Shown in pieces: positions 11,015 through 53,136 of a DNA stretch of 64,000 bases. The notes below the pieces were generated by a model. That model made no database searches. It saw nothing but the letters and a program-made list of their open reading frames with translations, and was not told where the DNA came from. Position numbers and translations under genes: made by a program. The stretch's first letter is position 1. Each line of letters begins with the position of its first letter. The DNA comes from a phage. The stretch lies in assembly GCA_012646185.1 (NCBI GenBank), contig GCA_012646185.1_4706.1. One strand, 5' to 3'.

Positions 11015-11020
11015 TCGTCG

Positions 11021-14992: not shown

Positions 14993-15013
14993 CAACAGAA
15001 ATCCTTATTTGTC

Positions 15014-17470
15014 TTAAATAATCGTGACGTGTTCGTTATATGTTTCAGGGAGAATGATGTTCGTTTTATCAAGAACCATACACTCGGCTTTACGGAACGA
15101 CGCATGGTTGATAACATAGTGGCTGATGAACCACACCTGGCTTACGCGGTGACCATCAACCAAACGACGAACAAAATCCATGGCATTAGATTGGTGCTGT
15201 GGATCAAATGTTGATGCGAATTCGTCTAACATCAACGGATAATCCGTGAACCCTTTGTAATGCATCATCGCGATGATGAACGCGATATTGATAATTTCCT
15301 TTTGTCCCTTACTCCCATAAACAATATCTTTTCGCGGTGTCGGATACTTCTCAGTTAAAAGCGGAAAACGATAGTTCAATCCTTGCGCGTCGATAGCACA
15401 CGGGAGTATCTGAAGTTGGTATTCCCAAATACTTGCAATGATGCCGTTCATGTACTCAACGAACGCGTTGATGGGACCCGCGATTGTTTCGGCAATCAAT
15501 CCGTTAGATGGACTTAACTCATCCAGAACAAGTTGTGCGTAACTGAGCTGTTCTTCCACCTCTTTTTGTGTCGTTTCCAACTGAGCCAGAAGCTGCTGGT
15601 CGGTTTTAGCTTCCTGTAACTGCTGTTCGACATGACTTATTCGGCGAACCGTATCAGACATCGCAGCACGTAACGATTTCGTGTAGAGGTGTTGCAGATA
15701 CTCTAACCACAGTTGCGTTAACGCTTTATCGCTGTTATCAGAACGTACCTGATCTTCCATAATCGCCGTAATGGTTTCCAATCTACCTTCCGTGGCTGTG
15801 ATAGCTTGTGTTAACCGCTCAACGGTTGTTAACAACTCTGTCCTGTTCTTATAAAGCAATTCTCGACGTTGCTGTAACGGTTCAACATCAACCGCTTGTA
15901 CCCGTTCGAGCATACCTTGAAGATGCTTCCGTTCCTGTTCGGCTTGTGTGTAACGCGCGAGTTTCTCAAACGCAAGCAACCAGTCATTAATGATTCCAAT
16001 GCTGCGGAATCCTAAACCGTTTTTACGTCCTTCTTCCAGCAGATTGTCCCACATGGGTTTAATGGCGTAATAATCTTTCGTCCAACGTGTTAACTGACGA
16101 TGCTGTTCCATCCAGAGCGTATAGCGCTGAACCTTCTCACTAAGCTCGGTTAACGATTTCTCCTGTTCTTCAACCCAGGCACGGCCCTTCTGAATACGTT
16201 GTTCAATACCCGCTTTGCTGGTCTTTTCTGTCTCACCAACATGAAAGCGATAATTGCATTTTGGACAGCTGGTCTGGGGTTGATGATTCAGGTGGTCAAG
16301 ATGCGCTTCCAAATCGGCTAACGCATGTTTCGCGTTACGCAAACGCATTCTTGCCGCCTCTTCCTCCTTGATGTAAGCTTCAGCATCGTAAACATGATAG
16401 GTGTTGTCGGTATCAATCCATTCTTGCAGTAATTCCGTTAACGGAGCCTGAACTTGCGTGAGCTGTTGTAAACAAACCGCAGCGTCCAGATTCATTGTTA
16501 AAAGCTCACCTGGATGATCTTGCTGAAGTTGTTCGTCTAAACGTGCAATGCGGGCTTTAATTTGATCGATATCACCTTCGCCAGACTGTTTCAACTGGTC
16601 AAGGATATTATCGATACCCAACAGCTCGTCAACCTGACTTTCGAGTTTTGCATTCGCATTCGCGAGTTGCTCTCTTAGTTCAGCCAGATTCTGCTGTTCT
16701 TGTTGCGATGTTCCTCCTTGGTAACGAACAACCGCACGAAGAAGCTCACGATTAAAATGATGGGCGCGTTGTGCGGATTCCAGAAGCTGTCGTTGATCAA
16801 CATCGCTATCGAATAACGGCAATCCCATCATCGCTTCGAGCGCTGAGCGTTGCTGTTTTAACTCTGCTTCCAATCCCTGGTGGTCGGTGCCGGTGTATTT
16901 CGCTTCGATGCGCTGTGATGTTTCAACCAACTTATTCAGTGTATGCTCATTCACCGCTTTCAGTGAACGTACTTGTTGCTTAACCACCTGAAACAACTCG
17001 AGTGCGTAATCGACGTTAACCGGACATATCTGCGTTAATCGTTCGCGACGTTTCATCGGTCCCATTTCGGTGAACTGGTAAGCCGTTTCGTAACCTAACA
17101 ACAAACGAATAGTGTCATCATTAAGTTCGAAATGTTCTTCGATCAGTTTCCACTGAGCGGGTTGTGTGCCACCACCATTCAGGTTCTCGCTGTCGTTAAC
17201 GTAGAACTCATGCTTAAACCCTTTTTCTAAACGACTGATAAGACGGTATTGCTTATTACGGTGTTCGCAGCGGTACTCGTAATACCCGTCTTTATCAAAA
17301 TCGGCACGCTCAGGAACGGTCGGATACAGCAAAGGCAATAGACTACTCTTACCCGAACCGTTGCTGCCTAAAATGAGTTGTACGGGATTATCTGGCCGGA
17401 TGACCAGCTCCCGAATCATCCCGGTATCAAAACGATTGAATCCACGTAAGTGGAGATAGGTGCATCGCAT
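15014..17470 (-). CDS. SbcC/Rad50-like SMC-family ATPase (818 aa)
   Basis: Walker A GSNGSGKSS ~36 aa from the chosen ATG, long heptad-rich middle with CPKC zinc-hook-like motif, signature-like SKGQKE, Walker B LMLDEF, H-loop FISHY. Confidence 0.8.
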   Translation of the reverse strand: MRCTYLHLRGFNRFDTGMIRELVIRPDNPVQLILGSNGSGKSSLLPLLYPTVPERADFDKDGYYEYRCEHRNKQYRLISRLEKGFKHEFYVNDSENLNGGGTQPAQWKLIEEHFELNDDTIRLLLGYETAYQFTEMGPMKRRERLTQICPVNVDYALELFQVVKQQVRSLKAVNEHTLNKLVETSQRIEAKYTGTDHQGLEAELKQQRSALEAMMGLPLFDSDVDQRQLLESAQRAHHFNRELLRAVVRYQGGTSQQEQQNLAELREQLANANAKLESQVDELLGIDNILDQLKQSGEGDIDQIKARIARLDEQLQQDHPGELLTMNLDAAVCLQQLTQVQAPLTELLQEWIDTDNTYHVYDAEAYIKEEEAARMRLRNAKHALADLEAHLDHLNHQPQTSCPKCNYRFHVGETEKTSKAGIEQRIQKGRAWVEEQEKSLTELSEKVQRYTLWMEQHRQLTRWTKDYYAIKPMWDNLLEEGRKNGLGFRSIGIINDWLLAFEKLARYTQAEQERKHLQGMLERVQAVDVEPLQQRRELLYKNRTELLTTVERLTQAITATEGRLETITAIMEDQVRSDNSDKALTQLWLEYLQHLYTKSLRAAMSDTVRRISHVEQQLQEAKTDQQLLAQLETTQKEVEEQLSYAQLVLDELSPSNGLIAETIAGPINAFVEYMNGIIASIWEYQLQILPCAIDAQGLNYRFPLLTEKYPTPRKDIVYGSKGQKEIINIAFIIAMMHYKGFTDYPLMLDEFASTFDPQHQSNAMDFVRRLVDGHRVSQVWFISHYVINHASFRKAECMVLDKTNIILPETYNEHVTII

Positions 17471-18699: not shown

Positions 18700-18734
18700 C
18701 CTCCTTCCCTAGCCGTCAAGGCCGGGGAAGGAGG
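18700..18734. terminator. CT/GA hairpin variant (CCTCCTTCCC...GGGAAGGAGG)
   Basis: 10-bp stem; between convergent gene ends. Confidence 0.55.
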
Positions 18735-21050: not shown

Positions 21051-21073
21051 GGAAGGGAATATGTTTCCCTTCC
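21051..21073 (-). terminator. hairpin GGAAGGGAA...TTCCCTTCC (attenuator/terminator candidate)
   Basis: 9-bp stem between two operon genes; no T-tract, so possibly a processing or attenuation site. Confidence 0.35.
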
Positions 21074-22486: not shown

Positions 22487-22568
22487 TTAAAAAGTTCCTC
22501 TGTTTTTCACGTTAATTAAACAACGTATTGATTTCTATTTGACGCAATACGAACATTGTACGTATGCA

Positions 22569-22593
22569 TCACTAAGGTAATATAGTCGTGAAA
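22569..22593 (-). promoter_or_regulatory. conserved 25-nt motif copy 2 (plus strand TCACTAAGGTAATATAGTCGTGAAA)
   Basis: ~83 nt upstream (minus orientation) of the 21704..22486 start. Confidence 0.5.
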
Positions 22594-23286
22594 GGATTTG
22601 TGTTACAGAAAGGGTTTTGTTGTGTTTTAAGAAGGGATGGATTTAGAAGAGGTGTTTCATGGAAGGTAAACGAGGATAGGTATTTTGATTTAAGTAAGTA
22701 AGATGTTATCTGTATTCGTTAAAAGTGTATTGTTTATCTTAGGTTATGTCTTATTGTTTAATCGTTTAATATTTTTATCTAAGTAGGTTTAACTCTATCT
22801 TGTTTGTATATTTAAATTAAATCAATAAGCTTATCTTCAAAACAATGGATAACATGTGTTTACTACCTTAACGGTAACACATGTCATCTGTGCATTACAC
22901 TCCGTTATCACTTCGTTACATGCTTATAAGTTGGATAACTCAAAAAAACATTTGTGATACTCTTCTTCACGTTGTTCATCAGAGTATCTCGTCTATACTC
23001 ATTGCATTCGTATACGACATAACCGTTATACGCTAACGCTACGCTTATAGCTTGATAACTCTAAGGATAAAAACATAAACTCGCTTCGCTCGTTTAGTTT
23101 TTCTTTTTCTTAGAGTTATCCTGTTGCTCGTCTCTAAAGGACTTCGCTCCTCCCCCGTCCCCCGAAGGGGCCGGAGTCGTGGAAATTTTACTTTCCAAAT
23201 ACATTTACAACATCTGTAAACTTTTACTCCAGGTACTTAATCTTATCATTAGAAATTATAAAGAGAAGAATAAACACAAACATAAA

Positions 23287-23318
23287 CCTTCCTCCAACCC
23301 AACAGGGAAGGAGGAAGG
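23287..23318. terminator. conserved CT/GA hairpin (minus-strand reading CCTTCCTCCTTCCC-TGTT-GGGTTGGAGGAAGG)
   Basis: Directly downstream of the 23335..24228 stop. Confidence 0.6.
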
Positions 23319-23334
23319 GAGAGCTTGATTTTAA

Positions 23335-24228
23335 TTAATCGGCGGTGTTATAACCGAATACTGCTTTACCGTAGGTGTGAGTACCGTTAGCTAACGACAG
23401 CACCAGCACATGGTTGTACGTAGCGTTAACGCCCTTGTCAGTAGACTCGGTGGTAGCACCGTTATAGACAAAGGTAGCCGTTTGCAGATTGGCTTTCAGC
23501 TCGGTGATGATCTCATCACTGACACCTGTCTGCTCTTTGATCAGCGTAGTCAGGTTACCTGCCAGGCTTGCATCGATATTTACTTCGTTGCCAGTAATAG
23601 CTTGTAAACCTGCGGTGTAAGTACTGAAGTCTAACGGATAGGTTAACAGACGTGCTGACGTTTTGGTACCATCGCCATCATCAACGTAGGTTAAGTTACC
23701 CAGGTTGGTAACCTTGATGATGTTAGCCAGATCCAGCGTGGTGTTATAAACTTTAACTTGAACAGAGCCATACCACGCCAACGAATCTTCTTTGGCTTCC
23801 AGGGTGATCGTCTGGATACCATGCTGGTCGAAGGTAACCGGCGTAGCTAACGTTTCGGCTTTGATGTCTTTATCTTTATCCAGGAACTTCTCACCGGTCG
23901 GCGTGATCATACCGTAGCGTTGAGCTACAAGGTCAACCACATCACCGATGGTGGTGTCAGCAGTAACGTTAACACGTACAGCGATTTTCTGGAACCACTT
24001 AGCCAGATCCAGACGATGGTAGGTAACATCGCGGTTATTGAAGTAAGGTGTACCATCACCAGGGCTAAGCGTTAAAGTTGCTTCTGGAGCAGAAGCGCTT
24101 TTGGATTTAAGAACGTATTTAAGATCACTGTATTGGAAGCTGGCACCAGTGTCGGCGTTGAGCTGATTGATCTCATCAACGATAAGTTGCCAAGGTGTTT
24201 TTAAAGTAAGCGATACTTGAGTTGCCAT
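23335..24228 (-). CDS. virion-type protein, paralog-family member (297 aa)
   Basis: ATG with GAGGT SD; shares Y-x-R-N, YxRLDL and LAWxGSV motifs with the 35294, 37116 and 37978 products; strongly host-optimised codon usage. Confidence 0.6.
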   Translation of the reverse strand: MATQVSLTLKTPWQLIVDEINQLNADTGASFQYSDLKYVLKSKSASAPEATLTLSPGDGTPYFNNRDVTYHRLDLAKWFQKIAVRVNVTADTTIGDVVDLVAQRYGMITPTGEKFLDKDKDIKAETLATPVTFDQHGIQTITLEAKEDSLAWYGSVQVKVYNTTLDLANIIKVTNLGNLTYVDDGDGTKTSARLLTYPLDFSTYTAGLQAITGNEVNIDASLAGNLTTLIKEQTGVSDEIITELKANLQTATFVYNGATTESTDKGVNATYNHVLVLSLANGTHTYGKAVFGYNTAD

Positions 24229-24912: not shown

Positions 24913-25111
24913 TAAGCACATAGAGCAATAGTATGGGTTTTGTACAGCTCGGCTATTGCTCTTCTACAATTTGGTTGTAACAATCTGCGTGGTTGCACGC
25001 TTATCTTTCTCATTGAGCGCTTCGTATGAAGCGTGGTGTTGAAAGGGTTGTGGATCTCCTCAAGCGGCCAGGGACCCAGACCAACCTGAATAAACACGAA
25101 CACCTGTTAAG

Positions 25112-25143
25112 CCCCTCCTCATCCGTTATTGGGTGAGGAGGGG
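25112..25143. terminator. CT/GA hairpin variant (CCCCTCCTCA...TGAGGAGGGG)
   Basis: 10-bp perfect stem ~200 nt downstream of the 24370..24912 stop, between convergent genes. Confidence 0.55.
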
Positions 25144-25206
25144 TCTTATACGTCTTTATGCGTTCCGTTCGTTCTGGAGCGTTTTAGGACGGTTTACGGC
25201 AGGGTT

Positions 25207-31655: not shown

Positions 31656-31697
31656 CTATCGAAAAATAAAAAGAAGGAAAGGTGGGTAGAACCCACC
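31656..31697 (-). terminator. hairpin GGTGGGT-AGA-ACCCACC followed by T-rich tract on minus strand
   Basis: Immediately downstream of the 31704..33857 stop. Confidence 0.6.
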
Positions 31698-31703
31698 CAT
31701 CCG

Positions 31704-33857
31704 TTATAACGTTTCGAAGTCGGTTGCTTTGATAACCGCGTTGAAGTTGGCAAGGAATTCCTTAAGCAATGCTTGGAAGACATCACGAAACGCTGTGTTC
31801 GTCTGCAAGCTGGTTAAATAATCGTTCTTAAGGTAATCGCTCAGCTTACCGATCTTCTGCATCTTCTCGCCGTCTTGGTTCTCTCCAGGTTCTTGGCTGT
31901 TGATGTTAACCCATTTGATCCCTTCGAGATCGCCATCGGCAAGGAAGTTAGCGGGCGTCTCATCGTCGTTCAGGATTTTAATCGTGTCGCTGGATTCAAT
32001 ACCACCGTAAGCTTCCAGAAGCTGGTTGACTGTTAGCTTATTAGTGTTGATTGAACCATTGACACCATCGATACCGATGCCTGCACCTGTGATGGATGTC
32101 GCCGAAAGATCGATTGGTCCGGTTAACTTACCCCCGTTGATCGGTAACGCACCAACTTGCTCTGCGGTGTGTGTATGGTCAGCTAACGCCGCAAACGCCG
32201 TGATAGACTTATATGTCGAATACGGCGTCATATACGCTGATTGGTTGGTGTTGTCAGCCGCTTCAGTATCGGTAGCGACATTAAAGTTCTGCACGTTGCT
32301 GAGACCGACCTGCACCTTCGTTACTTCATGCGGGTTGTTCTTATTGACAACGTGTGCTGCAAAACCGTCACCGGCTAAAGCAGTGATTGCCGCTTTTGTC
32401 GCAGCCGGTGTCATATAGCGGTTGGTTGCTTCACCCGTTTGCGCCTCTTCGTCGGAAGCAACAGGATAGTTCTCAACGCTCCCCAACCCAACCTGAGATT
32501 TTGTTACTTGGTGTGGGTTTTCGGTATTCGCAATATGACTACTGAACCCTTGACCCGCCAGTTGCTCGATTGCGTAACGAACAAGTATTGGCGTCATGTA
32601 CTTGTTGTTAACCTGACCATCGATAGCTTCTTGGGTGGTGGCAACCCCGAAGTTTTGCACGCTCCCCAACCCAACTTGCGCTTTCGTAACAGCGTGAGGG
32701 TTATTGGTGTTACCGATGTGATCGGTAACCGTTGGGGTGATTAATCCTGCGATAGCGGCTGCCGTGGTCGCAGGGGTCATGTATTTATCGTTAGCAACAC
32801 CCGCAGCAGCTTCTACGTTAGATGCTACACCGTAGTTCAATACATTTCCTAACCCAACTTGAGCCTTGGTTACCCCGTGGGGGTTGTTCCTGTCTCCGGT
32901 ATGGGTTGTCAACGTAGCGTTGACATGATCGATACGCGTACTTAAGCCGTCGGTGATTGCTTTGATTGCGGCTCGTACACCCGCTGGTGTTGTGTACAGA
33001 TTGGTGGCCGTACCGGTAATGGTTGCATTACTATCGGCTGTACCGTAGTTCTCAACGTTTCCGAGTCCCACCTGGGCTTTCGTTACCTTGTGTGGGTTGT
33101 TATAGTTGCTGATGTGTGCAGCAGCACTATCACCACTCAGGTTAGCGATCATCTTACGCGTCATCGCCAACGTCATGTACAGATTTTCACCGATGGTTTC
33201 CAGATCGCTCTCGGTCGCCGTTGTGAAGTTCTGAACATTCCCCAAACCAACTTGTGCCTTGGTTACGCCATGTGGGTTATCGCGACGATTCTCGTGCTGC
33301 AGCAATGCGGTCATTGCTTTATTGAACCCTTCTTCAAGCGGTTCTTTCAATGATTCGATTGCAGCCACCACATCGTCCCACGTCATTGTGTCGGTTTCGA
33401 CATTATGTTGGTGGTTGATTGGCGGGAATACGGAAGGAACGTCAGCAACCTTTTCCCAGAACGTAACGCGGGGATCGTAAAGGTTGTTGGCTAAAACGTT
33501 AAGAATTTGTTGTTGATCAAGTGTAAACTCACCCCCCAGTGAATAGTAGTTCAGTTGCAACTGTCCACTGAATGCGGTGTCCAACAGCATGATGGAACCG
33601 TATAATTCCAGGCCGGTCAGCGCAGCCATGGCACGGAAGGGGTGAGTGCATAAAAAGTCAACGCCTTCTTCCAGATACGCGTTTGTTTCAGGGTTGTAGA
33701 TCTTTAACCCATTACGAAAATAGGGTGCGTATTTAGGAACGAGAAAGTTAAATCCGGTCCCCGTGGAAGGACGGACAGTGACGAGTTCTTCTGGAACCCA
33801 TGCGCCATCCAAATTCCCCTGCGGGTTATACGGAAGGCGTTTAATTTCATCTGTCAT
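31704..33857 (-). CDS. tail fibre protein with phage fibre repeats (717 aa)
   Basis: At least six copies of NPHxVTKAQVGLGNVxNF repeat. Confidence 0.85.
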   Translation of the reverse strand: MTDEIKRLPYNPQGNLDGAWVPEELVTVRPSTGTGFNFLVPKYAPYFRNGLKIYNPETNAYLEEGVDFLCTHPFRAMAALTGLELYGSIMLLDTAFSGQLQLNYYSLGGEFTLDQQQILNVLANNLYDPRVTFWEKVADVPSVFPPINHQHNVETDTMTWDDVVAAIESLKEPLEEGFNKAMTALLQHENRRDNPHGVTKAQVGLGNVQNFTTATESDLETIGENLYMTLAMTRKMIANLSGDSAAAHISNYNNPHKVTKAQVGLGNVENYGTADSNATITGTATNLYTTPAGVRAAIKAITDGLSTRIDHVNATLTTHTGDRNNPHGVTKAQVGLGNVLNYGVASNVEAAAGVANDKYMTPATTAAAIAGLITPTVTDHIGNTNNPHAVTKAQVGLGSVQNFGVATTQEAIDGQVNNKYMTPILVRYAIEQLAGQGFSSHIANTENPHQVTKSQVGLGSVENYPVASDEEAQTGEATNRYMTPAATKAAITALAGDGFAAHVVNKNNPHEVTKVQVGLSNVQNFNVATDTEAADNTNQSAYMTPYSTYKSITAFAALADHTHTAEQVGALPINGGKLTGPIDLSATSITGAGIGIDGVNGSINTNKLTVNQLLEAYGGIESSDTIKILNDDETPANFLADGDLEGIKWVNINSQEPGENQDGEKMQKIGKLSDYLKNDYLTSLQTNTAFRDVFQALLKEFLANFNAVIKATDFETL
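32180..33305. repeat. about six tandem ~183-bp coding repeats (fibre repeat)
   Basis: Periodic recurrence of the repeat at the DNA level, similar to 26520..27420. Confidence 0.7.
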
Positions 33858-33961
33858 GATGCGCCCTTTACAAGTTGTTAGTAAGTATGGGATACCCTGG
33901 GGTATCCTGTGTTAACAGCGGTAAAATATTACTGTAACTATAAAATAAGGGGGCCTCTCCC

Positions 33962-35242
33962 ATGTATACATTGGTAAAAACTTACGGGTTACCCGTAGGT
34001 TCTGGCACGGCCTGGACAGCGCTTGAGGCGGGTGAAAGTGTCCTGAGTACGTTGTTCTCAACGTATCAAAAACTCAAGATCCAGGTCCATGAAAGCTATG
34101 CTGACCAGCAACAAGTTATTGATCTGTACGCGTTCCAATCCGAGCTTCAAAACAGTAGAGATACGCTTAATGCGTGGCTGAAGGCGAAATCGGATGCGCA
34201 TACCAACCTTCGAGGACAGCCTGGTGAACTGTCGATTAAAACCCACAAGCTTTATTGTCATGACGTTGTTACTGTAGGCTTTCTCCCTAAAGTCGGTAAT
34301 AGCGGTTATCATCCGAGCAACGCGATCCCTGAGTCGGAACGCACCGATATCCTGTTGACGAAAGCGAATACGAATTACGAAAATATCGGCAAACACTGCC
34401 TGTTCACCGTAGGTGGTTATGTTCATCCTCACGTCTACGGTAAAGACGTTGGTGTCTATATCCAGGGCGGGTTCAAGACGGCACAGCGTAGCCAAGAAAA
34501 CGATATCGGCATGATTGATTTTAGCCGTATCGGGAGTTTGGAAATCCATGCTATCACAGAAGAGATGATTGCTGATTCCACGAAGCTCTTGCCGTATAAG
34601 GACGAGATGTACTTGCGGTTACCGCGCAAGGTCGCCGAAGATGAAACCGTCGCGCTGGTGTTCGGGGGATATTTACATCTTCTTGACGATTGTTACACGA
34701 TCGTTAGTGACACGACAGCGAAAATAAACTGCATTAACATGTTTCTTTATGAAAGATACTTCCGTTCCCGCAAATACCTTGATCTAACATCTCTTGGTAT
34801 TCTGTTGAACGAAGAAGACCCACAGTCTGACATTGTTGCCAATCGTTTATTGTCGGATAAAGCATTAAAAGCGTGGGTGACGCATCCTTGCAGTTTCTGG
34901 GTGTATATCAAAGCAACATCGATTCAGGTTACGCAAGAACCCTTACCACGAAGTGGTGTACCAGGACAATATTTCTTAGGTAAGAAACCGGAAGGATTGA
35001 TTCGAGCTGATCTCGGCGAGTTACCGGCTTACGTGCAGACCTATGAAAAACCGTTATGGGTACTTCACTCGCGCTGGGGACTTCGTAAGAATATGTTGTT
35101 TGAAAATACGTTGTACAAACATACCCGCGTTAAGCGACTTAACGATACGCCTTATCTTCACCAGGTTTGGTTGGAAACGCATGCAACGTTGCAGACAGTA
35201 CACAAGCTCGAATTGATCGATTCCAGTCAGAAAAACAAATAA
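33962..35242 (+). CDS. hypothetical protein (426 aa)
   Basis: ATG with AAGGGGG SD; followed by conserved hairpin. Confidence 0.6.
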   Translation: MYTLVKTYGLPVGSGTAWTALEAGESVLSTLFSTYQKLKIQVHESYADQQQVIDLYAFQSELQNSRDTLNAWLKAKSDAHTNLRGQPGELSIKTHKLYCHDVVTVGFLPKVGNSGYHPSNAIPESERTDILLTKANTNYENIGKHCLFTVGGYVHPHVYGKDVGVYIQGGFKTAQRSQENDIGMIDFSRIGSLEIHAITEEMIADSTKLLPYKDEMYLRLPRKVAEDETVALVFGGYLHLLDDCYTIVSDTTAKINCINMFLYERYFRSRKYLDLTSLGILLNEEDPQSDIVANRLLSDKALKAWVTHPCSFWVYIKATSIQVTQEPLPRSGVPGQYFLGKKPEGLIRADLGELPAYVQTYEKPLWVLHSRWGLRKNMLFENTLYKHTRVKRLNDTPYLHQVWLETHATLQTVHKLELIDSSQKNK

Positions 35243-35252
35243 CCAAACATAA

Positions 35253-35284
35253 CCCTCCTCCTTCCCTTACGGGTTGGAGGAGGG
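35253..35284. terminator. conserved CT/GA hairpin (CCCTCCTCCTTCCC-TTAC-GGGTTGGAGGAGGG)
   Basis: Archetype of the hairpin family; between convergent gene ends. Confidence 0.6.
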
Positions 35285-35293
35285 CATATGCTG

Positions 35294-36199
35294 TTATGCT
35301 ACATATAACGTTAGATAACCATCGATGAGCGTATTCATCACACTGAGTTGGAGTACGACAGCTTTACTAACATCCGTACGTACACCGAACGGTAGTGTTT
35401 TGAATTGCTCTGGATCGGCTATTACTCTCGCGTTCTGCAAGTTGAGTGGTCCAGGCATTGACGACAATACCCAGCGATCGTTGACCATAAGGCCGTCGAT
35501 CTCTTCAGAGAGACCCAATTGCAGTGTGTTCATTTCTGCGATTAGTGCCTCCGATTGCGTATCGCCTGAGGTTAATGTGTACCCATCGGTAAGTGATGCC
35601 AGAACACCAGCAGATACGAACCAGTTGTACGAAACAATAGCGCCTGGGAGTTTACTGCTATCTCGATCGATGATATAATTCAACCCAGCCAACATATTGT
35701 TGCGAACGAGGTTGTTGAGGTCGTTATGTCCTGAGGTTAACTCAACAAGTAACTGACCAACCCATACTTGGTTACCAGGTTTAGGTGTTATCACAACCTG
35801 TATCGGTGACTTGGACTTATCCAGATCCGCGTCGACAATCTCGGTTTTGTTGAGAAGGATACCGTACGTCGATGCTAAGACAGGTAGGATCTCAGAGACC
35901 TTGGTTAATGCATCTAAGGTTTCGATCTCGATGGGCCAGTGGTGCTGTCCGCCAGGCCAAGTACCCAGTTTACCAAGATCGATGCGGTTATAATAGATGT
36001 CGACAGAGTTCACCAGCCCTGAACCCGGTTGGGGATGCACGGTTAACTTGCTGTTACGCTTGTACCCTGTGCTTTCAGAAGCCTCACCGATAACCAGTTT
36101 ATCCAGCGTTACGCCTCGAGCATCGAAATCGCTATGCTTTCGAATCAGCCGAAAGAGGATTTCTTTCGATTCTAACCCCAGGATTTCACTGTACTCCAT
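35294..36199 (-). CDS. virion-type protein, paralog-family member (301 aa)
   Basis: AAGGGGTG SD; YKRN...YYNRIDLG...STYGILL motifs shared with paralogs. Confidence 0.6.
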   Translation of the reverse strand: MEYSEILGLESKEILFRLIRKHSDFDARGVTLDKLVIGEASESTGYKRNSKLTVHPQPGSGLVNSVDIYYNRIDLGKLGTWPGGQHHWPIEIETLDALTKVSEILPVLASTYGILLNKTEIVDADLDKSKSPIQVVITPKPGNQVWVGQLLVELTSGHNDLNNLVRNNMLAGLNYIIDRDSSKLPGAIVSYNWFVSAGVLASLTDGYTLTSGDTQSEALIAEMNTLQLGLSEEIDGLMVNDRWVLSSMPGPLNLQNARVIADPEQFKTLPFGVRTDVSKAVVLQLSVMNTLIDGYLTLYVA

Positions 36200-36214
36200 T
36201 TAACACCCCTTAGG

Positions 36215-37099
36215 TTACGGTAGGATTTCTGCGCCCGTCGGGCCTGCCTTACGAGCTTCCAACGCACCAAGGTCGTATTTCAGCGTCAGCGTATCGTTGG
36301 TGGTATAAAGGTTGTGGTAAGTCGAAATCAGATCGGTAACCTGCGCGCCGACGATTTCGTTCATGTCGAAGGCTGAACCTTGACCATCATCAGCACGAAC
36401 GATTTTATCGCCAGCAGAGACCATCCCAATTTCAGAAATAACCGCGTACTCTTCACCACCTTCGGTGAGTTTAGCTACATTGAGATATTCGTTAATATCC
36501 CACGGCGTCCAAACCAAAGAGACTTTACAGCTGTAGTCGTAGTACTCTCCGGTTGCTACCAGAATTCCGGTTGTTGGGATATCCGGTCGGGCAGGGTTGA
36601 GGTTCGCGTCGGTTGGGTGCCATTCGATGGTCTGAGCGACGCCGTCGACGTATTTGGTATAACGCATGGAGCGGACAACGTTATCGAAATCGATCCGGCG
36701 ACCGTAATAACAGATATACTTTTTACCGCTTTCCAGTGTCTCAATACGACGTAACCCAAATTTAGCGCGTTCGTCTGTGGTCAAATCGTTACCAACTTCA
36801 CGCATTACGAAAGGCTTGATTTTCCACGGTGAAAGATCGCTTGCTTCGTGAGCGATCGGCATCGAGGAAGGGATACCGTTAGCGTTGCGGATGAATTCAT
36901 GACCTTGGTTGCCGATACAGAAGTAACGTACAGCAGGATTACCCTCGGGGTAAACCTTTGATTGAATCTGAAGTTTTTCATTCAAGGTGCTGTGTTCTTC
37001 CCATGCATGAGGAAGACCGAGCGTAAGGTTAGTTTGTACTTGACCGCCGATAATCGTACGGACGATACGATCGGTAGCACGGATTTGTGTAGAAGCCAT
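36215..37099 (-). CDS. hypothetical structural-module protein (294 aa)
   Basis: ATG with AGGAAAAG SD; only weak similarity to the flanking paralogs. Confidence 0.6.
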   Translation of the reverse strand: MASTQIRATDRIVRTIIGGQVQTNLTLGLPHAWEEHSTLNEKLQIQSKVYPEGNPAVRYFCIGNQGHEFIRNANGIPSSMPIAHEASDLSPWKIKPFVMREVGNDLTTDERAKFGLRRIETLESGKKYICYYGRRIDFDNVVRSMRYTKYVDGVAQTIEWHPTDANLNPARPDIPTTGILVATGEYYDYSCKVSLVWTPWDINEYLNVAKLTEGGEEYAVISEIGMVSAGDKIVRADDGQGSAFDMNEIVGAQVTDLISTYHNLYTTNDTLTLKYDLGALEARKAGPTGAEILP

Positions 37100-37115
37100 G
37101 TCTTTTCCTATTTAA

Positions 37116-37967
37116 TCAGTTATATTGCATCAACAGGATACCGCCGTAGTTCGTGCAGTAATCTTGGCTAAGCGTAACGATAACAGCGTTAGCGAACGCA
37201 GGGTTAACCGGATAACCCTGTGCGATAAGTTCTGTTGTTTTACCGGTTGCAAGCACGGTGGCTCCGTAAAGGTTGTTTTCGTCTTCACGGCCGTTATAAA
37301 CCCATGGGGTTGGCGCAACGTTGTTGAATAAGCTAACCATTGCGCTTAAATTACCGCCAACTTTTAACCCGGCGAGATCGGAACGGATAGCCGTACAGTC
37401 TATAGCGTAACTGTAGACCAGTGCCTGGATACGATTTGCGGTGTAGTACGGGAAATTGAGGCCGGTCATCACCGTGGACTTCATCATCCCCGCAACATCG
37501 TGGGCACTATCGAGGAGATAGAACGTAACACTTCCCGTCCAAGCCAATCCGGTTGTTTTCAACTCTACGGTGTGAGGGAACGGATATTCATCACCTCGTA
37601 CAATCGGAGAATCGACGCAGCTATCCTGATCGATAACGATTCCGTACGTTGATTGAATCAGAGGGATAAGATCGTGCGTCGTTTTAACCCCAGCATCGAT
37701 AGCAAGCTTCGGTTCCATTCCCAAGAAGAAGTCTTGGATAGGGATACGATCGTACCACACGTAGCTGCTTTCACGGTATTGTGCTGGTGTTACTGTTGCC
37801 GAAGGTGATACCTTAGCGCGTGTGTTCCGTTTATACGCGTGGTTTCCGTTTTCAGCAACATCCGTGATATCAAGTGCATCGAAGTTAAAGTCGAAGTCAG
37901 GATTGGCTGCCTGAATAAGTTCAGCGACCAGTACTTTAGGACTTTTGTTTAACAATTTCTGACTCAT
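37116..37967 (-). CDS. virion-type protein, paralog-family member (283 aa)
   Basis: AAGGA SD; YKRN...WYDRIPI...STYGIVI...LAWTGSV motifs. Confidence 0.6.
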   Translation of the reverse strand: MSQKLLNKSPKVLVAELIQAANPDFDFNFDALDITDVAENGNHAYKRNTRAKVSPSATVTPAQYRESSYVWYDRIPIQDFFLGMEPKLAIDAGVKTTHDLIPLIQSTYGIVIDQDSCVDSPIVRGDEYPFPHTVELKTTGLAWTGSVTFYLLDSAHDVAGMMKSTVMTGLNFPYYTANRIQALVYSYAIDCTAIRSDLAGLKVGGNLSAMVSLFNNVAPTPWVYNGREDENNLYGATVLATGKTTELIAQGYPVNPAFANAVIVTLSQDYCTNYGGILLMQYN

Positions 37968-37977
37968 TGTTTATTCC

Positions 37978-38913
37978 TTAGCCTTGTTCTTCTGGAGAAC
38001 GACCCTGGAGGCTTGCGGTATGTCCGTCGACGTTGTAATAGAAAATCAATGGACCGCCGACGGCAGTACAGTAGTTTTCATCCAGACCGATCTCGATACC
38101 GTATTGGTAACCTGCTCGTGCTGGAATACGTCCGCCTAACTCGCCGTTGAAAGCCACTTTAGCGTTATACAGGTTATACGGTGCGATGTTGTCGTCTAAC
38201 ACCCAACGATCGGCGGTCATTTCAGCCAGAAGATCGGCGACCACCACATCGCTAATGACCGTACCTGTTACCAGCGAAGCTAGCAACTCACCGTAATCAG
38301 AAGTATCACGACTGTAACTGTAGATCTCACCGCTAGCGCGTACGCCCTGTCCGAAGAACTTAAGACCATCAAGCTCTTTGATCGCGATAATATCATCAAG
38401 ATTCGGTACACGCGACTTCATCAAGATACGAACACTTCCCGTCCAAGCCAGGCAGTTAGATGCGACACGAAGCAATTGTCCGTTAACGGTATCCCAGTTA
38501 AGTTCGTCGTTGACGATTTCCTCCGCGGTAAGGCCAAGACCGAAACGTTCTTTGATGATAGGCCAGATATCACGCATCTTGGTGGCGTCTGGCGCATCGA
38601 TAAGAATAGGCGCTACGTTACGCAGATACGCACCGATATTGATACGATCGTAATACAGCGTCGTCGAACCTTCGTAATCGTCTAACTCAGTAAGCTTAGC
38701 GGTTGCTGTCGCCGTAATCTGGGTGTCGCGCTCATAGGCGCTTTGGTTGGTGGTTGGTGTTCCTAAAACCAATAATTCAGGGGTTAGGATATGCTCTCCG
38801 TTCTGAGGTGGGTTATCGTGGTTGATAAGACCATACACGAGATCGGATGAGGGTAAAGAGACGTCGACCGGGTAAAGTTCGGTGTCGTCAATAGTTGTTA
38901 CCGTATCACTCAC
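37978..38913 (-). CDS. virion-type protein, paralog-family member (311 aa, GTG start)
   Basis: GTG preceded by strong GAGGAGG SD; YERD...YYDRINIG...ERFGLGL...LAWTGSV motifs. Confidence 0.6.
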   Translation of the reverse strand: MSDTVTTIDDTELYPVDVSLPSSDLVYGLINHDNPPQNGEHILTPELLVLGTPTTNQSAYERDTQITATATAKLTELDDYEGSTTLYYDRINIGAYLRNVAPILIDAPDATKMRDIWPIIKERFGLGLTAEEIVNDELNWDTVNGQLLRVASNCLAWTGSVRILMKSRVPNLDDIIAIKELDGLKFFGQGVRASGEIYSYSRDTSDYGELLASLVTGTVISDVVVADLLAEMTADRWVLDDNIAPYNLYNAKVAFNGELGGRIPARAGYQYGIEIGLDENYCTAVGGPLIFYYNVDGHTASLQGRSPEEQG

Positions 38914-44321: not shown

Positions 44322-44355
44322 ACGGACGTAAAAAAAAAAAATAACACATAGTTAA

Positions 44356-44389
44356 CCTTCTCCCCTTCCCTTACGGGTTGGGGAGAAGG
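44356..44389. terminator. conserved CT/GA hairpin (CCTTCTCCCCTTCCC-TTAC-GGGTTGGGGAGAAGG)
   Basis: Between convergent gene ends; A12 run 15 nt upstream on the plus strand. Confidence 0.6.
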
Positions 44390-47303: not shown

Positions 47304-49100
47304 TCAATCGATTATGTCGTGATCGTTAATTTCTACAATTTCTTCATCGAATCGACCGACGTCTTTCTTCAAGCCTGCATTGGTTGCTGCAACGTCATTT
47401 GCAATTTGTGGGGTAATGATTAACCGACCGCGCTCATCGATAGGTGCGTACATACTGAACTTCTGACGTCCGGTTGGTTCGGAGTGTGGAAGATTCAGAT
47501 AGCTTGCACAGAACGGGATGGAACCACTAACCAAACGACTCTCGTCAGCCAATGCAGCACCGCCTGCGTTTTGGCTCTGGAGAACAACATGCGTGCTCAC
47601 TTTGAACAGCATGCAATCACCAGGTGACTGAATCGATGTTGCCACTTTCTCACGTTTATCACGATTGCTCTGGATATTGAGAATCGCTTCCGTTGCAACT
47701 TGATTTCGCAACGCCTTCTGTACATCGCGATTGGTCATCTCTTTACGGTTGTTCTGTCGTTTACCACGTTCTGTGGTTTTAAGATGGAACCCCAGTTTAA
47801 AGATGCTCTTACGCACATCCTCCATGACATATTCCAACACCATCAATTCCTTACCGAACATCGTCGTGGTGTCAACACGACTCATTTCGATAGTGACATT
47901 GTCAATCAGATACGCCATAAATTCATAGAAGTCGTCGCAAGGAATATTTTCCTGTTTGAACTTCTTCTGCTGAATTTCGTCAACGTAAAGATCGAGACTG
48001 TCGATGTGGTGGTTTACATCACGCAACAAACGCGCATCCGCATTGTTGTTATTAAAGATAATCAAACCGAGTAATGTACGCCAATGGTCTGGCGCATTCG
48101 CGAACTCTTCAACCGGATAGTCTTCCGGAAAACGATCGTAATAACGGTCGATGAGATACAAGAATGCACCGACAAGGCCAAGAACAATACGTTCCGTGCC
48201 TCCACGTCTTACAGCAATTTGAATATCAGGATGTTTGTAACGTACAGCGCTAGCGCTACGGCTTTTACCGCTTTTGCTGATACTAAAGCCTTTAGGAATA
48301 ACCCCCATGGTGCGATAGATTACCCATTGGTCACGCGGAAAATCACGTTCAGCAAGGTTCCGTCCGGTTACGGCTTCGACACCTGCAAAACGTCGGAAAC
48401 ACTCACCCACCCCGTACTTCGCAAAGAGATAGTGACCCAGTGTGGTTACGCTGGTGTGGTTGATGTTGTCACCGTTCACTTTACTTTGTTTAGTAAGATG
48501 ATAGATTTGCGACCAGGGTAATGACAGGTAATGACGATAATCGATACCGGTCGGTGTATCGTTGCTCAGGAACTGATACGGTGTACGTTTAACCGTGATT
48601 TTGTCACGCGGAAGCATGATGAACGCCATGTCTTTCGTGTAACTGATTACGGGGTCAGCGAGTACCGCACTGAGAATGAAGTTCGCACCACGTAGACGCA
48701 TTTTACCACCCTGACCTACCGCGGGTAATAGGAGAGGATGTCGGATAATGCAGTAGTCCTTTCCGGGTTCACGACGGTCACCTGATTCCATCGCGCCGTA
48801 CCAGCGGAATTCTAGCATCACCATAAACACATCGGAAGGCGCAAGGTCGAAGGTCAGCTTACCGCTATCCTTCCCTTTGGTTTTCTTTCCTCCGCTTAAG
48901 TAGTGGAACTGTTCGCGGGCCATACAGCGACGCAGGCCATGATACACCAGATCCTTAGGTAAACTATCTTTGCTGTTCCGCCAAAGACGATCAACATAGG
49001 ACTCAACATCTTGCATCTTATCGACGACGATGTTGCGTGCTATCTTCTCGTTCATCTTCGGTGCAAGCTCAGCGACAGCTTTGCAGAATCTAGGATCCAT
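47304..49100 (-). CDS. hypothetical protein (598 aa)
   Basis: ATG with AAGGAG SD (track start 49103 is GTG). Confidence 0.6.
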   Translation of the reverse strand: MDPRFCKAVAELAPKMNEKIARNIVVDKMQDVESYVDRLWRNSKDSLPKDLVYHGLRRCMAREQFHYLSGGKKTKGKDSGKLTFDLAPSDVFMVMLEFRWYGAMESGDRREPGKDYCIIRHPLLLPAVGQGGKMRLRGANFILSAVLADPVISYTKDMAFIMLPRDKITVKRTPYQFLSNDTPTGIDYRHYLSLPWSQIYHLTKQSKVNGDNINHTSVTTLGHYLFAKYGVGECFRRFAGVEAVTGRNLAERDFPRDQWVIYRTMGVIPKGFSISKSGKSRSASAVRYKHPDIQIAVRRGGTERIVLGLVGAFLYLIDRYYDRFPEDYPVEEFANAPDHWRTLLGLIIFNNNNADARLLRDVNHHIDSLDLYVDEIQQKKFKQENIPCDDFYEFMAYLIDNVTIEMSRVDTTTMFGKELMVLEYVMEDVRKSIFKLGFHLKTTERGKRQNNRKEMTNRDVQKALRNQVATEAILNIQSNRDKREKVATSIQSPGDCMLFKVSTHVVLQSQNAGGAALADESRLVSGSIPFCASYLNLPHSEPTGRQKFSMYAPIDERGRLIITPQIANDVAATNAGLKKDVGRFDEEIVEINDHDIID

Positions 49101-49139
49101 CACACACTCCTTTCAGAAAGTTGCTTAAGCAGATTAAAG

Positions 49140-50750: not shown

Positions 50751-50784
50751 TTTTTTCTATTCGCAACAATAAACGGCATAGAAA

Positions 50785-50814
50785 CCTCCCCCAACCCTTA
50801 CGGGCTGAGGGAGG
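50785..50814. terminator. conserved CT/GA hairpin (CCTCCC-CCAACCC-TTAC-GGGCTGA-GGGAGG)
   Basis: Downstream of the major structural gene stop in minus orientation. Confidence 0.6.
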
Positions 50815-50913
50815 CTGACTTATGTATCACGGTGCCGGATGAATGTCCGGTGCAATGAAACCATCCGCAACGTTGTCGTCAAGAATATCGTCCAACGAAG
50901 CAGCTACGGTAGT

Positions 50914-53136
50914 TCAGTTAGTCTGAACCGGCAGCTTGATGTTTTCAGTGTAGACCTTACGCAGGTTCACAACGTTAATCAGACCCAGCAGCGGGCAGTT
51001 GTTAACGAAGCGGCAGCGCGGCTGAACCATGGTTTCTTTAGAAACCTGACCGTTACGGGTAACCTGAGCAACAGATACCAGTTCCGGTACATACAGGAAC
51101 ATACCGAAGGTCAGCGGATCCGGAGAACCCTGGATACCACGAGACAGGGTCACGAAGATCTTATCGCGCAGCATGACGTTCGGGTTATCTACAACCACGA
51201 AGTTGAAGCTTACACCAACGGTACGGAAATCGCCATCGGTCTGCAGGAACTGCGGGATGTAGTTGTCAGTTGCTACTACGCAACGCGGTTTCTCATCAGC
51301 GTTGGAAGACAGCAGCTGCAGAGCTGGCTGATAACCAGACTCGGAGTACATGCGGTATGCCATCTCACGAATCACGTTCATGATCGCAGCAGACACTTCA
51401 GCACGACGTTCTGCAGTGGTGGTACCCTGAACAGATTTCTCCAGGTCCAGATTGATTTCTTCGAACCACGGACGGATCAGGTAACGACCGAAACCTTCGA
51501 TCTGGATGTCGCCGAACTGACGGAAGCGAGAGGTCGCAACCGCTTTCAGTGCGTCTTTGTAGCTGAACAGTTTCTCAACCATCAGGTTGTCGAAACGTGC
51601 GTTAGCAGCTTGGATCAGAACGTCCAGGTCAGCAGCGTTTTCTTCCCAATCCAGCGGACGAGGAATGGAGAACGGAGCCAGCAGGCCGATTGCGTAACGT
51701 TCTTGCTTCATGTTGAAGTCAAGGTGCTTACCGCGCTCACGACGGTTGCTGTTGTTACGGCGGATACGCAGTTCGTAACCAACCAGTTTGAAGCTCAGGT
51801 CTTCAGCCAGCTGTTTGAACTCTTCGCCCTTACGCGGTTGTTCGATGTTGTCACGATCGACCAGACGATACAGTTCAGCGTTAGCGCCGTTAACACGCAG
51901 ACCGGCTTTCTCTACGTTGGAAGAACCGTAAACTTCGATTGCCAGCTGAGCAGCGGATTTCGAATCGATGATGTCCTGCAGCGCTTCAGCTCGTGCACCT
52001 TTAACGTCAACGGTGTTCTCATCAACGAAGATGGAGTGGGTGTCGAACGCCAGGGTCATTTTGCGGAAGTCGCCTTCCAGGGATTTCTGGAAACCGTTGG
52101 TGATCAGACCAGATACGTCGAACGGTACGTAAGAGGTTTTGCTGTGCTTGGTAGATTTGATTTCCACCAGGATTTTGGTCAGCGTGATCTGGGCGTCCAG
52201 CGCGTCGGTGTTGTCGCTGTAACCGTTAGCCAGGATGCTATCGTCTTCAGCGATACCGATCATGTCGATCAGTTTATCAACAGCCAGGTAAGACGTTTTA
52301 TAAGTTACGCCTTTAATTTCGATGTCGCGCGGAGCAACGATAGCTTTGTCAACGAAGTACTGTGCGTTAGCATCGTCAGCACGATAGATCGGATGCAGAT
52401 CGGTCACGTCGTTGGACAGAACGTCGTTGTACATGAACGCATCCAGCAGCGGACGACGTACCCAATCAGCCGGAGTACCGTCAGCGTTACGACGCAGGTG
52501 GTTGAACACCAGCGGACGACGGAAAGATACGTCGTAACCGATCTGGTTCGGAGCCAGAACGATGGTGTTGTACAGTTCGTTACCCATGCGGCTCAGACGA
52601 GAAGCCTTCACGTTGAACACAACGGAGTACGGCATCATGTCACGCAGTTCTTTCTGGTCGTAGGACAGCTGAACCAGTTCTTCAGATTCGCAACCGCAGG
52701 AATCAGCAGCCATCATGACGAAGTTAGAGCTGTCAACTTCACGGCCAGACGGAGTGGTGCTGATGTTCATGGAACGTGCTTGTTTAGCATATTCCACCGG
52801 GTTACCATGAGCCAGCATGATCAGTGCTGCTGCACGAGCCTGCTGTGCGTTCATGGTGAACAGCTGTTCTTCAATACGCTGCTTCTCTTCCGGAGTGGTG
52901 GTTTCGAAGCCCAGCATGGACAGAACCGGTTCTTCGGCTTTACGGATGTCGCTGCTGAAGCTCTTAACATCCATTTCGTTAACCAGTTTGTCCATGGATT
53001 TGAAATCAACCTTAGAAGCAGATTCCATAGACAGGAAGGTGTTCTCCAGACCTTTGTCTGCTGGTTTGCTACCATTAGCGGTCAGGAACTGGCGAGTGGC
53101 CGCGACCTGTTGGCTAAGAAGGGTTTTATCATTCAT
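50914..53136 (-). CDS. major virion structural protein (major capsid or tail sheath candidate, 740 aa)
   Basis: Strongest codon-usage bias in the window; ATG with AAGGA SD; length matches phiKZ-type major capsid proteins but also sheath proteins; no motif-level assignment possible. Confidence 0.55.
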   Translation of the reverse strand: MNDKTLLSQQVAATRQFLTANGSKPADKGLENTFLSMESASKVDFKSMDKLVNEMDVKSFSSDIRKAEEPVLSMLGFETTTPEEKQRIEEQLFTMNAQQARAAALIMLAHGNPVEYAKQARSMNISTTPSGREVDSSNFVMMAADSCGCESEELVQLSYDQKELRDMMPYSVVFNVKASRLSRMGNELYNTIVLAPNQIGYDVSFRRPLVFNHLRRNADGTPADWVRRPLLDAFMYNDVLSNDVTDLHPIYRADDANAQYFVDKAIVAPRDIEIKGVTYKTSYLAVDKLIDMIGIAEDDSILANGYSDNTDALDAQITLTKILVEIKSTKHSKTSYVPFDVSGLITNGFQKSLEGDFRKMTLAFDTHSIFVDENTVDVKGARAEALQDIIDSKSAAQLAIEVYGSSNVEKAGLRVNGANAELYRLVDRDNIEQPRKGEEFKQLAEDLSFKLVGYELRIRRNNSNRRERGKHLDFNMKQERYAIGLLAPFSIPRPLDWEENAADLDVLIQAANARFDNLMVEKLFSYKDALKAVATSRFRQFGDIQIEGFGRYLIRPWFEEINLDLEKSVQGTTTAERRAEVSAAIMNVIREMAYRMYSESGYQPALQLLSSNADEKPRCVVATDNYIPQFLQTDGDFRTVGVSFNFVVVDNPNVMLRDKIFVTLSRGIQGSPDPLTFGMFLYVPELVSVAQVTRNGQVSKETMVQPRCRFVNNCPLLGLINVVNLRKVYTENIKLPVQTN

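Follow-up and report, generated by a model that had tools for sequence, protein, structure and literature searches.

The DNA analyzed here (the window) is a 64,000-nt stretch of a phage genome (GenBank assembly GCA_012646185.1, contig GCA_012646185.1_4706.1). This study concerns a hairpin at positions 35253-35284, between the convergent genes 33962-35242(+) and 35294-36199(-), and the family of similar hairpins dispersed over the window. The sole megablast match of window 33000-38000 was Escherichia phage vB_EcoM_Goslar (MK327938 / NC_048170), with 97.3% identity over the full query. By this identity, the window belongs to a phage that is closely related, though not identical, to Goslar, a 237-kb nucleus-forming jumbo phage of the Chimalliviridae. 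The window numbering runs about 7.5 kb ahead of that of Goslar, and window 1-7500 corresponds to the right end of Goslar. A pattern scan of IMG/VR returned Goslar and two Goslar-like genomes, UViG_3300011560 (237.5 kb) and UViG_3300045988 (182.9 kb), both 90-98% identical to the window over the overlapping parts. The window encodes a homologue of gp123, which in phiKZ is the beta-like subunit of the non-virion RNA polymerase; by this homologue the phage encodes a multisubunit polymerase of the phiKZ type, and further beta/beta'-like polymerase genes are annotated in Goslar. The gp123-homologue gene is found two genes downstream from the major capsid gene, an arrangement shared with phiKZ and PhiEaH1, and its product is a 'hypothetical protein' in the Goslar record.

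The 35253 hairpin reads CCCTCCTCC-TT-CCC-TTAC-GGG-TT-GGAGGAGGG. Its outer stem has a 5' arm made entirely of pyrimidines and a 3' arm made entirely of purines. The same design, consisting of an outer stem of 9-10 bp, a 2x2 internal loop, a CCC/GGG clamp and a tetraloop, is found in the copies at 7513, 11663, 23287, 44356, 55583 and 57268; the internal loop is symmetric, TT/TT when read on one strand and AA/AA on the opposite one. All core copies are stable stem-loops with a C/T-rich 5' arm (pyrimidine fraction 0.86-1.0) and a G/A-rich 3' arm. In a derivative at 50783-50816, downstream of the major capsid gene, AG replaces the 5' TT and lets the entire stem pair; this holds for the - strand only, where two G·U pairs complete it (-29.1 kcal/mol for the sense strand vs -17.4). 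The initial annotation had described a family of near-identical CT/GA-rich hairpins with several looser variants, and this family proved real, with the full architecture at seven core sites plus the wobble variant at 50783. The looser variants at 2876, 18700 and 25111 are indeed strong CT/GA-stem hairpins (-26 to -29 kcal/mol) whose inner parts differ from the core; the 18700 element represents a second subfamily with the inner sequence TAGCCGTCAAGGCCG, present in three copies in Goslar. A fourth proposed variant, at 21051, is weak and of reversed polarity; its stem is not conserved in Goslar or UViG_3300011560, and it was not counted as a member. In total the window carries 7-8 near-identical two-tier hairpins and 3-4 looser variants, all of them intergenic.

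A pattern for the 3' half of the element, CCCNNNNGGGTTGGRGRRRG, matched the window seven times with at most one mismatch, vs 0.00 matches expected from shuffles, and CCTCCTTCCC gave eight matches at the same stringency vs 1.55 expected. A chance origin of the family is excluded. An unbiased enumeration of palindromic hairpins retrieved 12 of the initially annotated sites among the 17 strongest sites of the window, and RNA folding of the copies with their flanks gave -26.6 to -33.4 kcal/mol (z -4.9 to -7.3). When the gene map was curated with the annotation of Goslar, eight sites proved to lie between convergent genes and four in tandem arrays, and both orientations occur, in line with the initial description. 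The statement that the hairpins always directly follow a stop codon was slightly overstated: the gap is 4-34 nt at 10 of the 12 sites and reaches 62 nt at 25111 and 97 nt at 50783. No Rfam family matched the window at gathering thresholds (nor segment 22400-23400 at E values up to 1), and no tRNA genes were found in the window. A consensus promoter/terminator scan of the window missed nearly all members of the family because it demands a T-run. In the GenBank record of Goslar, five members carry the tag 'putative transcriptional terminator' (ARNold) and the remaining copies are unlabelled.

On the transcribed strand, the stem is immediately followed by a conserved and strand-specific tail, TTATGCYGT, which the initial annotation did not contain. 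It is present on one strand of core copies and of the 50783 derivative, with a full match to TTAT-K-YY-GT at 7513(+), 11663(+), 35253(+), 50783(-) and 57268(-); the short-stem hairpins at 11020(+) and 62572(-) match it in full as well. The tail is reduced to TATG at 23287(-), 44356 and 55582(+), and it is absent at 18700. A canonical Rho-independent U-tract (at least 5 U within about 8 nt) does not directly follow the core copies, in line with the initial annotation: sense tails contain 2-7 T per 10 nt, the single unbroken run is the T5 of 11663(-), and the T-rich stretch of 23287(-) is interrupted. The TTATGCYGT tail explains why a U-tract is lacking, and through it the family is connected to the terminator motif mapped by experiment in phiKZ and 201phi2-1.

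The association of tail and hairpin was analyzed over the complete Goslar genome (247 annotated coding sequences; 59 strong intergenic hairpin loci). Of the hairpins at or below -20 kcal/mol, 82% are intergenic, a share that rises to 89% at or below -22 kcal/mol, for an intergenic fraction of the genome of 7%. In the window as in Goslar, the hairpins are mostly intergenic and lie downstream of genes in the sense orientation. TATG starts within 6 nt of the stem in 42 of 74 strand-instances downstream of a co-oriented gene and in 3 of 34 antisense instances, with a background of 1.9% (Fisher p = 1.6e-4; binomial p ~1e-52). The aligned Goslar tails gave the consensus T-T-A-T-G-C-Y-G-T, and 18 of the 40 TATGCYGT sites of Goslar adjoin a strong hairpin, vs 0.75% expected.

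In phiKZ, 133 terminators were identified by ONT-cappable-seq; six phages together had 84 ARNold-intrinsic terminators, more than 70% of them in phiKZ, where their consensus is 5'-BCCYCCCCHWWDGGGRRGGBYTTATKYYGT-3' (E = 1.7e-212; PMC10914365). In 201phi2-1, a motif that 'strongly resembles' that of phiKZ occurs in 59 of 132 terminators, two combined motifs generate elongated stems, and eight terminators placed in a two-reporter assay strongly stopped transcription (PMC11512511). The published phiKZ 3' half, with up to three mismatches, hit six sites in the window, all six at hairpin bases. As a MAFFT alignment of phiKZ and 201phi2-1 terminators anchored TATG and left the stems out of register, a position weight matrix (PWM) of the tail was used instead, built from 20 tails of these two phages only; 8 of its 17 best window matches are at hairpin bases. 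Scans of about 42 kb around the capsid gene of each relative detected a hairpin with TATGYYGT after genes in phiKZ, 201phi2-1, Xoo-sp14, Ea35-70 and PhiEaH1; in phiKZ, 201phi2-1 and Ea35-70 one such hairpin comes right behind the major capsid gene. In the SPN3US-like phage SPFM2, TATG was found on 0 of 39 hairpin strands in the same scan, and plain U-tracts were present instead. The transcription termination site of the 201phi2-1 capsid gene at 132,419 (PMC11512511), the one site that was placed, is 8 nt past the last paired base and 2 nt past TATG; an 8-nt distance between stem and end is usual for intrinsic termination.

Watson-Crick compensatory changes are compatible with a role at either the RNA or the DNA level, and the asymmetry between strands was used to separate the two. 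At 43 tandem loci of Goslar, the sense RNA is the more stable in 35 cases vs 8 (sign test p = 4e-5; Wilcoxon p = 6e-5), with mean values of -22.2 kcal/mol for sense and -19.5 kcal/mol for antisense. G·U pairs favour the sense strand, and the same positions are A·C mismatches on the other strand. As an example, the 25111 variant is more stable on the + strand through G·U pairs (-32.2 vs -27.2 kcal/mol). This bias, together with the strand-specific tail, argues for a function at the level of transcription or RNA rather than of the DNA palindrome as such. The initial annotation had pointed to compensatory changes that preserve pairing between copies as a check, and to stems not conserved in structure among related phages as a refutation; pairing proved to be maintained between copies, and the stems are conserved in the relatives. 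In a gap-free alignment of 13 distinct paralogous copies, 155 of 155 cells are paired and 7 of 12 pairs have changed on both sides (22 cells), and pairing falls to 50-70% in slid controls. More telling than the paralogues are the orthologous stems in Goslar and the two IMG/VR genomes, which keep their pairing throughout (the uncounted 21051 element aside). In the 25111 orthologues the inner stem has been rebuilt with Watson-Crick or G·U pairs preserved on the + strand, and in the 20563 orthologues single changes yield G·U on the sense strand.

The runs of A/T noted initially beside three copies were confirmed as A11 (7559-7569), A12 (44330-44341) and A10 (55561-55570), and they are the only homopolymers of at least 8 nt in the window. 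Homopolymers of at least 9 nt in the window and in Goslar are all A-runs on the + strand (T on the -) and lie within 30 nt of a strong hairpin. Read on the - strand, the layout is a hairpin, 11-14 nt and T9-17, with a spacer of 5-6 nt if flanking complementarity that extends the stem is counted. These runs are located at convergent sites where the - strand has no good TATGCYGT tail, and their length differs between relatives (A11 vs A17, A12 vs A9, A10 vs A9). They look like distal, conventional U-tracts that would serve the - strand of bidirectional terminators. Two other hairpins, at 9347-9384(-) and 31676-31702(-), follow - strand genes and have U-rich tails of the ordinary kind (CUUUAUAUCGUUUUUUCUUU and UUCUUUUUAUUUUUC, respectively), with at least 5 U within about 8 nt; judged by their tails, these canonical-looking intrinsic terminators form a separate class that coexists with the TATG-tailed one.

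Combined, these results indicate that the hairpins are most likely factor-independent transcription terminators of a Goslar-like chimallivirus, representing the Goslar-lineage form of a conserved phiKZ-type terminator. Termination was the baseline reading of the initial annotation, and the match to the mapped phiKZ/201phi2-1 motif supports it. The two-tier stem-loop formed by the nascent RNA would be very stable (about -23 to -30 kcal/mol), the tail UUAUG(C/U)(C/U)GU would stand in for the U-tract, and the transcript would be released a few nucleotides inside this tail or beyond it, as in 201phi2-1. Between convergent genes the near-palindromic element would serve both strands, and the 35253 copy is likely such a bidirectional terminator; in tandem arrays the full tail and the G·U-stabilized stem would be provided on the sense strand only. 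By analogy with the mapped phages, RNA 3' ends should form at the hairpins of the window phage, and we infer that the phage's own RNA polymerases are the enzymes stopped. Several points weigh against this interpretation. The tail is U-poor (3-4 U in 8), and TATG is missing at 18700, 2876(+) and 55583(-). We found no report of in vitro termination by a hairpin followed by UUAUGCCGU for any non-virion polymerase. The covariation among paralogues is inflated, the copies having been selected as hairpins. Finally, the mapped 3' ends of the relatives alone cannot separate termination from exonuclease trimming to a stable hairpin; for Goslar itself, an RNA-seq time course has been published without 3'-end analysis (bioRxiv 10.1101/2023.09.20.558163).

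The last point touches on the possibility that the hairpins are mainly protectors or processing sites of mRNA 3' ends, transcription stopping or RNA being cut elsewhere and 3' exonucleases trimming back to the stem. REP (repetitive extragenic palindromic) elements and some 3' stem-loops of Escherichia coli act as endpoints of such trimming. The high stability of the stems (-23 to -30 kcal/mol), their position just past stop codons and the absence of a canonical U-tract would all suit this role, and trimming is compatible with the 3'-end mapping in relatives. However, a pure exonuclease block needs no conserved TTATGCYGT tail, part of which lies beyond the mapped 3' end, and elements of the same type from 201phi2-1 stop transcription between two reporters in vivo (PMC11512511). 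We therefore regard protection as an unlikely main function; it is compatible with termination and would probably come in addition to it.

It also appears improbable that the elements are terminator-promoter cassettes, in which the hairpin ends one transcript and the adjacent TATG acts as a late promoter for the next gene or, at convergent sites, for an antisense RNA. The idea draws on phiKZ, whose late promoters require TATG only, with G as +1 and nothing conserved beyond it (PMC4666361), and whose gp123 binds TATG on the non-template strand (PMC12809450). The window phage has a homologue of this subunit, and within tandem arrays the next gene lies downstream of the motif. In addition, ATTATGCTGTTA is found without a hairpin at 59300-59311(-), about 30 nt ahead of the 58674-59279 gene start, and could be a late promoter sharing an extended motif with the terminator tails. 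Against the cassette, the full tail is also present on the + strands of convergent sites, with no gene behind it (window 7513, 11663 and 35253; Goslar 71990 and 93443); the motif is equally frequent at convergent sites, and TATG was not found as a rule upstream of a late gene with a usable 5' untranslated region. The annotated start codons at Goslar 49772 and 166924 coincide with the motif's ATG, and a transcript initiated at the G of the motif could not encode the protein in question. Furthermore, the terminator tail is conserved beyond TATG, unlike phiKZ late promoters, and in the one checkable case, the 201phi2-1 capsid-gene terminator, the 3' end maps beside the tail. At these two Goslar loci (49772 and 166924; window ~57263), the start ATG falls within the TTATG tail and the purine-rich 3' arm forms an apparent Shine-Dalgarno sequence; the gene caller may have placed these starts in error, or they may be genuine and occluded by the hairpin.

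If the elements are terminators, it is possible, though rather doubtful, that the TATG of the tail is read by the same pocket of the gp123 homologue that recognizes non-template TATG at late promoters. A sequence-specific pause of the elongating polymerase just past the hairpin may then let the hairpin act. If true, one 4-base recognition event would both start and stop transcription, which would explain termination without a U-tract in a nucleus-like compartment that presumably excludes host termination factors. Of the nine gp123 pocket residues (PMC12809450), five are identical in the homologue (Ser144, Lys158, Lys190, Ser334, Gln466) and four are not, in a pairwise phmmer alignment too weak for any claim.

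Comparison of the four genomes revealed that the centre of the element, TT-CCC-loop-GGG-TT, is reverse-complemented in at least one of them at five loci (window 11663-11694, 35253-35284, 44356-44389 and 55582-55615; Goslar 134586-134615). The arms and flanks are unchanged, the sequence of the loop is often altered too, and the genomes are 91-98% identical. The centre of 35253 is flipped relative to Goslar and the two IMG/VR genomes, that of 11663 relative to Goslar and UViG_3300011560, and that of 44356, with a changed loop, relative to Goslar; at 55583 the flip is in UViG_3300045988. At each of the five flipped loci the neighbouring genes are opposed, either convergent or overlapping, and no flips were seen among tandem copies. 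Loops are hypervariable among orthologues (TGTT/TGAT, ATCA/GTAA, GTAA/GTCA), and at Goslar 93445 (93445-93476) the stem CCCTCTCCC/GGGAGAGGG with loop AGCA is replaced by CCCTCCTCC/GGAGGAGGG with loop GTAA in both IMG/VR genomes. These hypervariable loops and the stem swap suggest palindrome-mediated inversion and/or gene conversion among dispersed copies, which would be tolerated wherever an element terminates in either orientation. Minute hairpin inversions of a comparable kind are known in non-coding DNA of chloroplasts. Through centre flips and stem exchange among copies, the terminator set may thus evolve in concert.

Recombination of this kind, and the dispersal of near-identical copies in both orientations, could also be expected of DNA-level palindromes (targets of a DNA-binding protein of the phage, hot spots for cruciforms or recombination, or mobile repeats of the REP type, with incidental effects on transcription), but such a nature is very unlikely given that at 35 of 43 tandem loci the G·U pairing benefits the sense strand, that the tail follows the direction of transcription and conservation is not strand-independent as in REP-like elements, that all window copies have Goslar orthologues with no presence/absence polymorphism hinting at mobility, and that the observed flips are confined to convergent sites, where either orientation serves as a terminator.

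The features are collected in Table 1. The short stems at 11020(+) and 62572(-) are, by their tails, putative members of the same terminator class, with stems unrelated to the core family. Paralogues of the 18700 hairpin are found at Goslar 84366 and 200229.

Table 1. Coordinates of the hairpins, tails, homopolymer runs and polymerase gene (window numbering unless another source is named)
Feature	Position	Strand	Sequence elements	Context or basis
Hairpin under study	35253-35284			RNA dG -29.6 (+, z -5.4), -33.4 (-, z -6.7)
3' tail of 35253 hairpin	35285-35294	+	CATATGCTGT	PWM score 12.1
Tail of 35253 hairpin on - strand	35244-35252	-	TTATGTTTG	sequence
Core copy with tail	7513-7553	+	TTATGCCGT	6 nt past stop of 6874-7506(+)
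A11 run (T11 on -) with separate hairpin at 7581-7602	7559-7602	-	GGCTCTCC…GGAGAGCC; - strand order: hairpin, 11 nt, T11	past stop of 7615-8316(-)
Core copy	11663-11705		CATCCTCCC-TT-CCC-TTAC-GGG-TT-GGGAGGATG; + tail AAATATGCCGT, - tail GTTTTTATGCG	convergent site
Core copy (TT form on -) with tail	23277-23318	-	TTTATGTTTGT	16 nt past stop of 23335-24228(-)
Core copy	44330-44389		CCTTCTCCCC-TT-CCC-TTAC-GGG-TT-GGGGAGAAGG; + tail GCTATGCGC; - strand order: hairpin, TTAACTATGTGTTA, T12 (44330-44341)	convergent site
Variant	50773-50816	-	AGCCTCCCTCAGCCC-GTAA-GGGTTGGGGGAGGTT + TCTATGCCGT	directly downstream of major capsid gene 50914-53136(-)
Core copy	55561-55615		+ tail GTTATGACCG; - strand order: hairpin, AACCGCACAATC, T10 (55561-55570)	convergent site
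Core copy	57257-57299	-	CCCTCTCCC-TT-CCC-TGAT-GGG-TT-GGGAGAGGG + TTCTATGCTGT	4 nt past stop of 57304-58671(-)
Second-subfamily hairpin	18700-18734		CCTCCTTCCC-TAGCCGTCAAGGCCG-GGGAAGGAGG; tails ATTATAG and TTATATAG, no TATG	convergent site
Variant	25111-25144	+	GCCCCTCCTCATCC-GTTATT-GGGTGAGGAGGGGT + CTTATACGT	orthologues differ, pairing kept
Variant	2876-2911		CCCACCCTAC…GGTAGGGTGGG; - tail TTATTATGTTATTTTTT	convergent site
Doubtful member, not counted	21051-21073	-	GGAAGGGAA…TTCCCTTCC; 9 bp, reversed polarity, no TATG tail	folding, ~-13 kcal/mol
phiKZ-like short stem	11020-11052	+	GAGCCTGTCC-TTCG-GGGCAGGCTT + TTATGCTGT	5 nt past stop of 10193-11014(+); best PWM match in window (16.7)
Short stem	62563-62593	-	AGCCCGCCC-TTCG-GGGTGGGCT + TTATGCTGT	past stop of 62609-63892(-); 1 mismatch to published phiKZ 3' half
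Homologue of phiKZ gp123	47304-49103	-		PDB 7ogp_E, E = 5.8e-41
A-runs of at least 9 nt	Goslar 36823, 48086, 108101, 108114, 146584, 200204, 237292	+		homopolymer count
Bacillales siphophage hairpins	L008 9651-9674, L023 519-542, L028 3248-3271			IMG/VR pattern scan

Several candidates were rejected. The further roles considered in the initial annotation, as RNA-processing sites, mere stabilizers of mRNA or sites bound by a phage protein, gained no specific support. A function for the anti-Shine-Dalgarno-like CCTCC noted initially was rejected as unsupported, the CCUCC of the RNA being sequestered by pairing in the stem and its polarity being reversed in some Goslar copies, Xoo-sp14 and Ea35-70. 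ChmC, a nucleus-associated RNA-binding protein, gained no support as a binder of the hairpins: published enhanced crosslinking and immunoprecipitation data place it near start codons, with no motif. The IMG/VR scan also returned three contigs of Bacillales siphophages with GGCCTCC-TT-CCC-N4-GGG-TT-GGAGGCC followed by TTTTTATGCTG, in one copy each and with a normal U-tract; they do not belong to the family, and these two-tier hairpins probably reflect convergence or chance.

Two further observations were made. A terminator tail, gttatgccgtcaagc, and the A-run after it (A16/A17) are repeated at the two ends of the Goslar record (1-56 and 237246-237307), which suggests that a circularly permuted genome was assembled with an overlap and cut within the homopolymer. 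Window 22487-23334 (Goslar 14972-15825) is an intergenic region of about 850 bp, more diverged between relatives than its flanks, in which no open reading frame above 51 aa, tRNA or Rfam match was found. Its - strand carries a UUCG-loop hairpin (23150-23179) and two TTATGT motifs without hairpin (23079 and 23023), and the region could encode small RNAs, as reported for phiKZ-like phages.

The observation itself is solid and largely ordinary: elements of this kind have already been mapped by experiment in phiKZ and 201phi2-1. No new kind of element is revealed, and what is new is the lineage-specific two-tier stem of a published terminator class; added interest comes from the conservation of the tail across genera, the overlap with the late-promoter motif TATG and the flipping of the centre. 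TTATGYYGT is conserved across genera whose capsid proteins are just 25-35% identical, yet absent from SPN3US-like phages, and this distribution points to a polymerase-specific stop signal, which makes the termination mechanism of non-canonical polymerases testable. Among nucleus-forming jumbo phages Goslar serves as the E. coli model, and a reliable terminator map would define its transcription units, be useful for knock-downs, transposon screens and engineered phages, and provide synthetic biology with strong compact terminators.

REP elements and BIMEs (bacterial interspersed mosaic elements) of enterobacteria are dispersed imperfect palindromes of 30-40 nt that follow stop codons in both orientations and can stabilize the upstream mRNA. 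Unlike them, the hairpin family has a strand-specific tail and strand-specific G·U pairing, and neither BIME-like clustering in arrays nor a sign of mobility was seen. With canonical Rho-independent terminators the family shares a GC-rich hairpin after the stop codon and, in a relative, release about 8 nt past the stem. The T10-12 runs on the - strand at 7559, 44330 and 55561 recall the A-tract/T-tract symmetry of bidirectional Rho-independent terminators; in contrast to the canonical type, most copies are without a run of at least 5 U within 8 nt of the stem. The closest counterpart is the phiKZ motif BCCYCCCC-HWWD-GGGRRGG-BY-TTAT-KYYGT (Putzeys et al. 2024, Microlife, PMC10914365). Shared features are the pyrimidine 5' arm, the purine 3' arm and the tetraloop, the replacement of the U-tract by TTATG(Y)(Y)GT immediately past the stem, the position after genes with bidirectional use between convergent genes, and phiKZ-type multisubunit polymerases. 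The phiKZ terminators were mapped by their 3' ends; the Goslar-lineage family was recognized from sequence. In place of the single 7-bp stem of phiKZ, the Goslar-lineage core has 9-10 bp, a 2x2 U·U (or A·A) internal loop and a CCC/GGG clamp, and its tail prefers GC(C/U)GU and is hence less U-rich; within the window, a single stem of about 7 bp with a 4-nt loop is found not in the core copies but only at 11020 and 62572. In 201phi2-1, motifs A and A/B (PMC11512511) have the same 3' tail, elongated stems formed by combining A and B, and strong termination in reporters, and a terminator likewise follows the major capsid gene at a conserved position; the stem sequences differ, as judged by our own scan of 42 kb of that genome. 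The two-tier stem is thus a lineage-specific variant that leaves the function-defining features of the phiKZ-type terminator unaffected.

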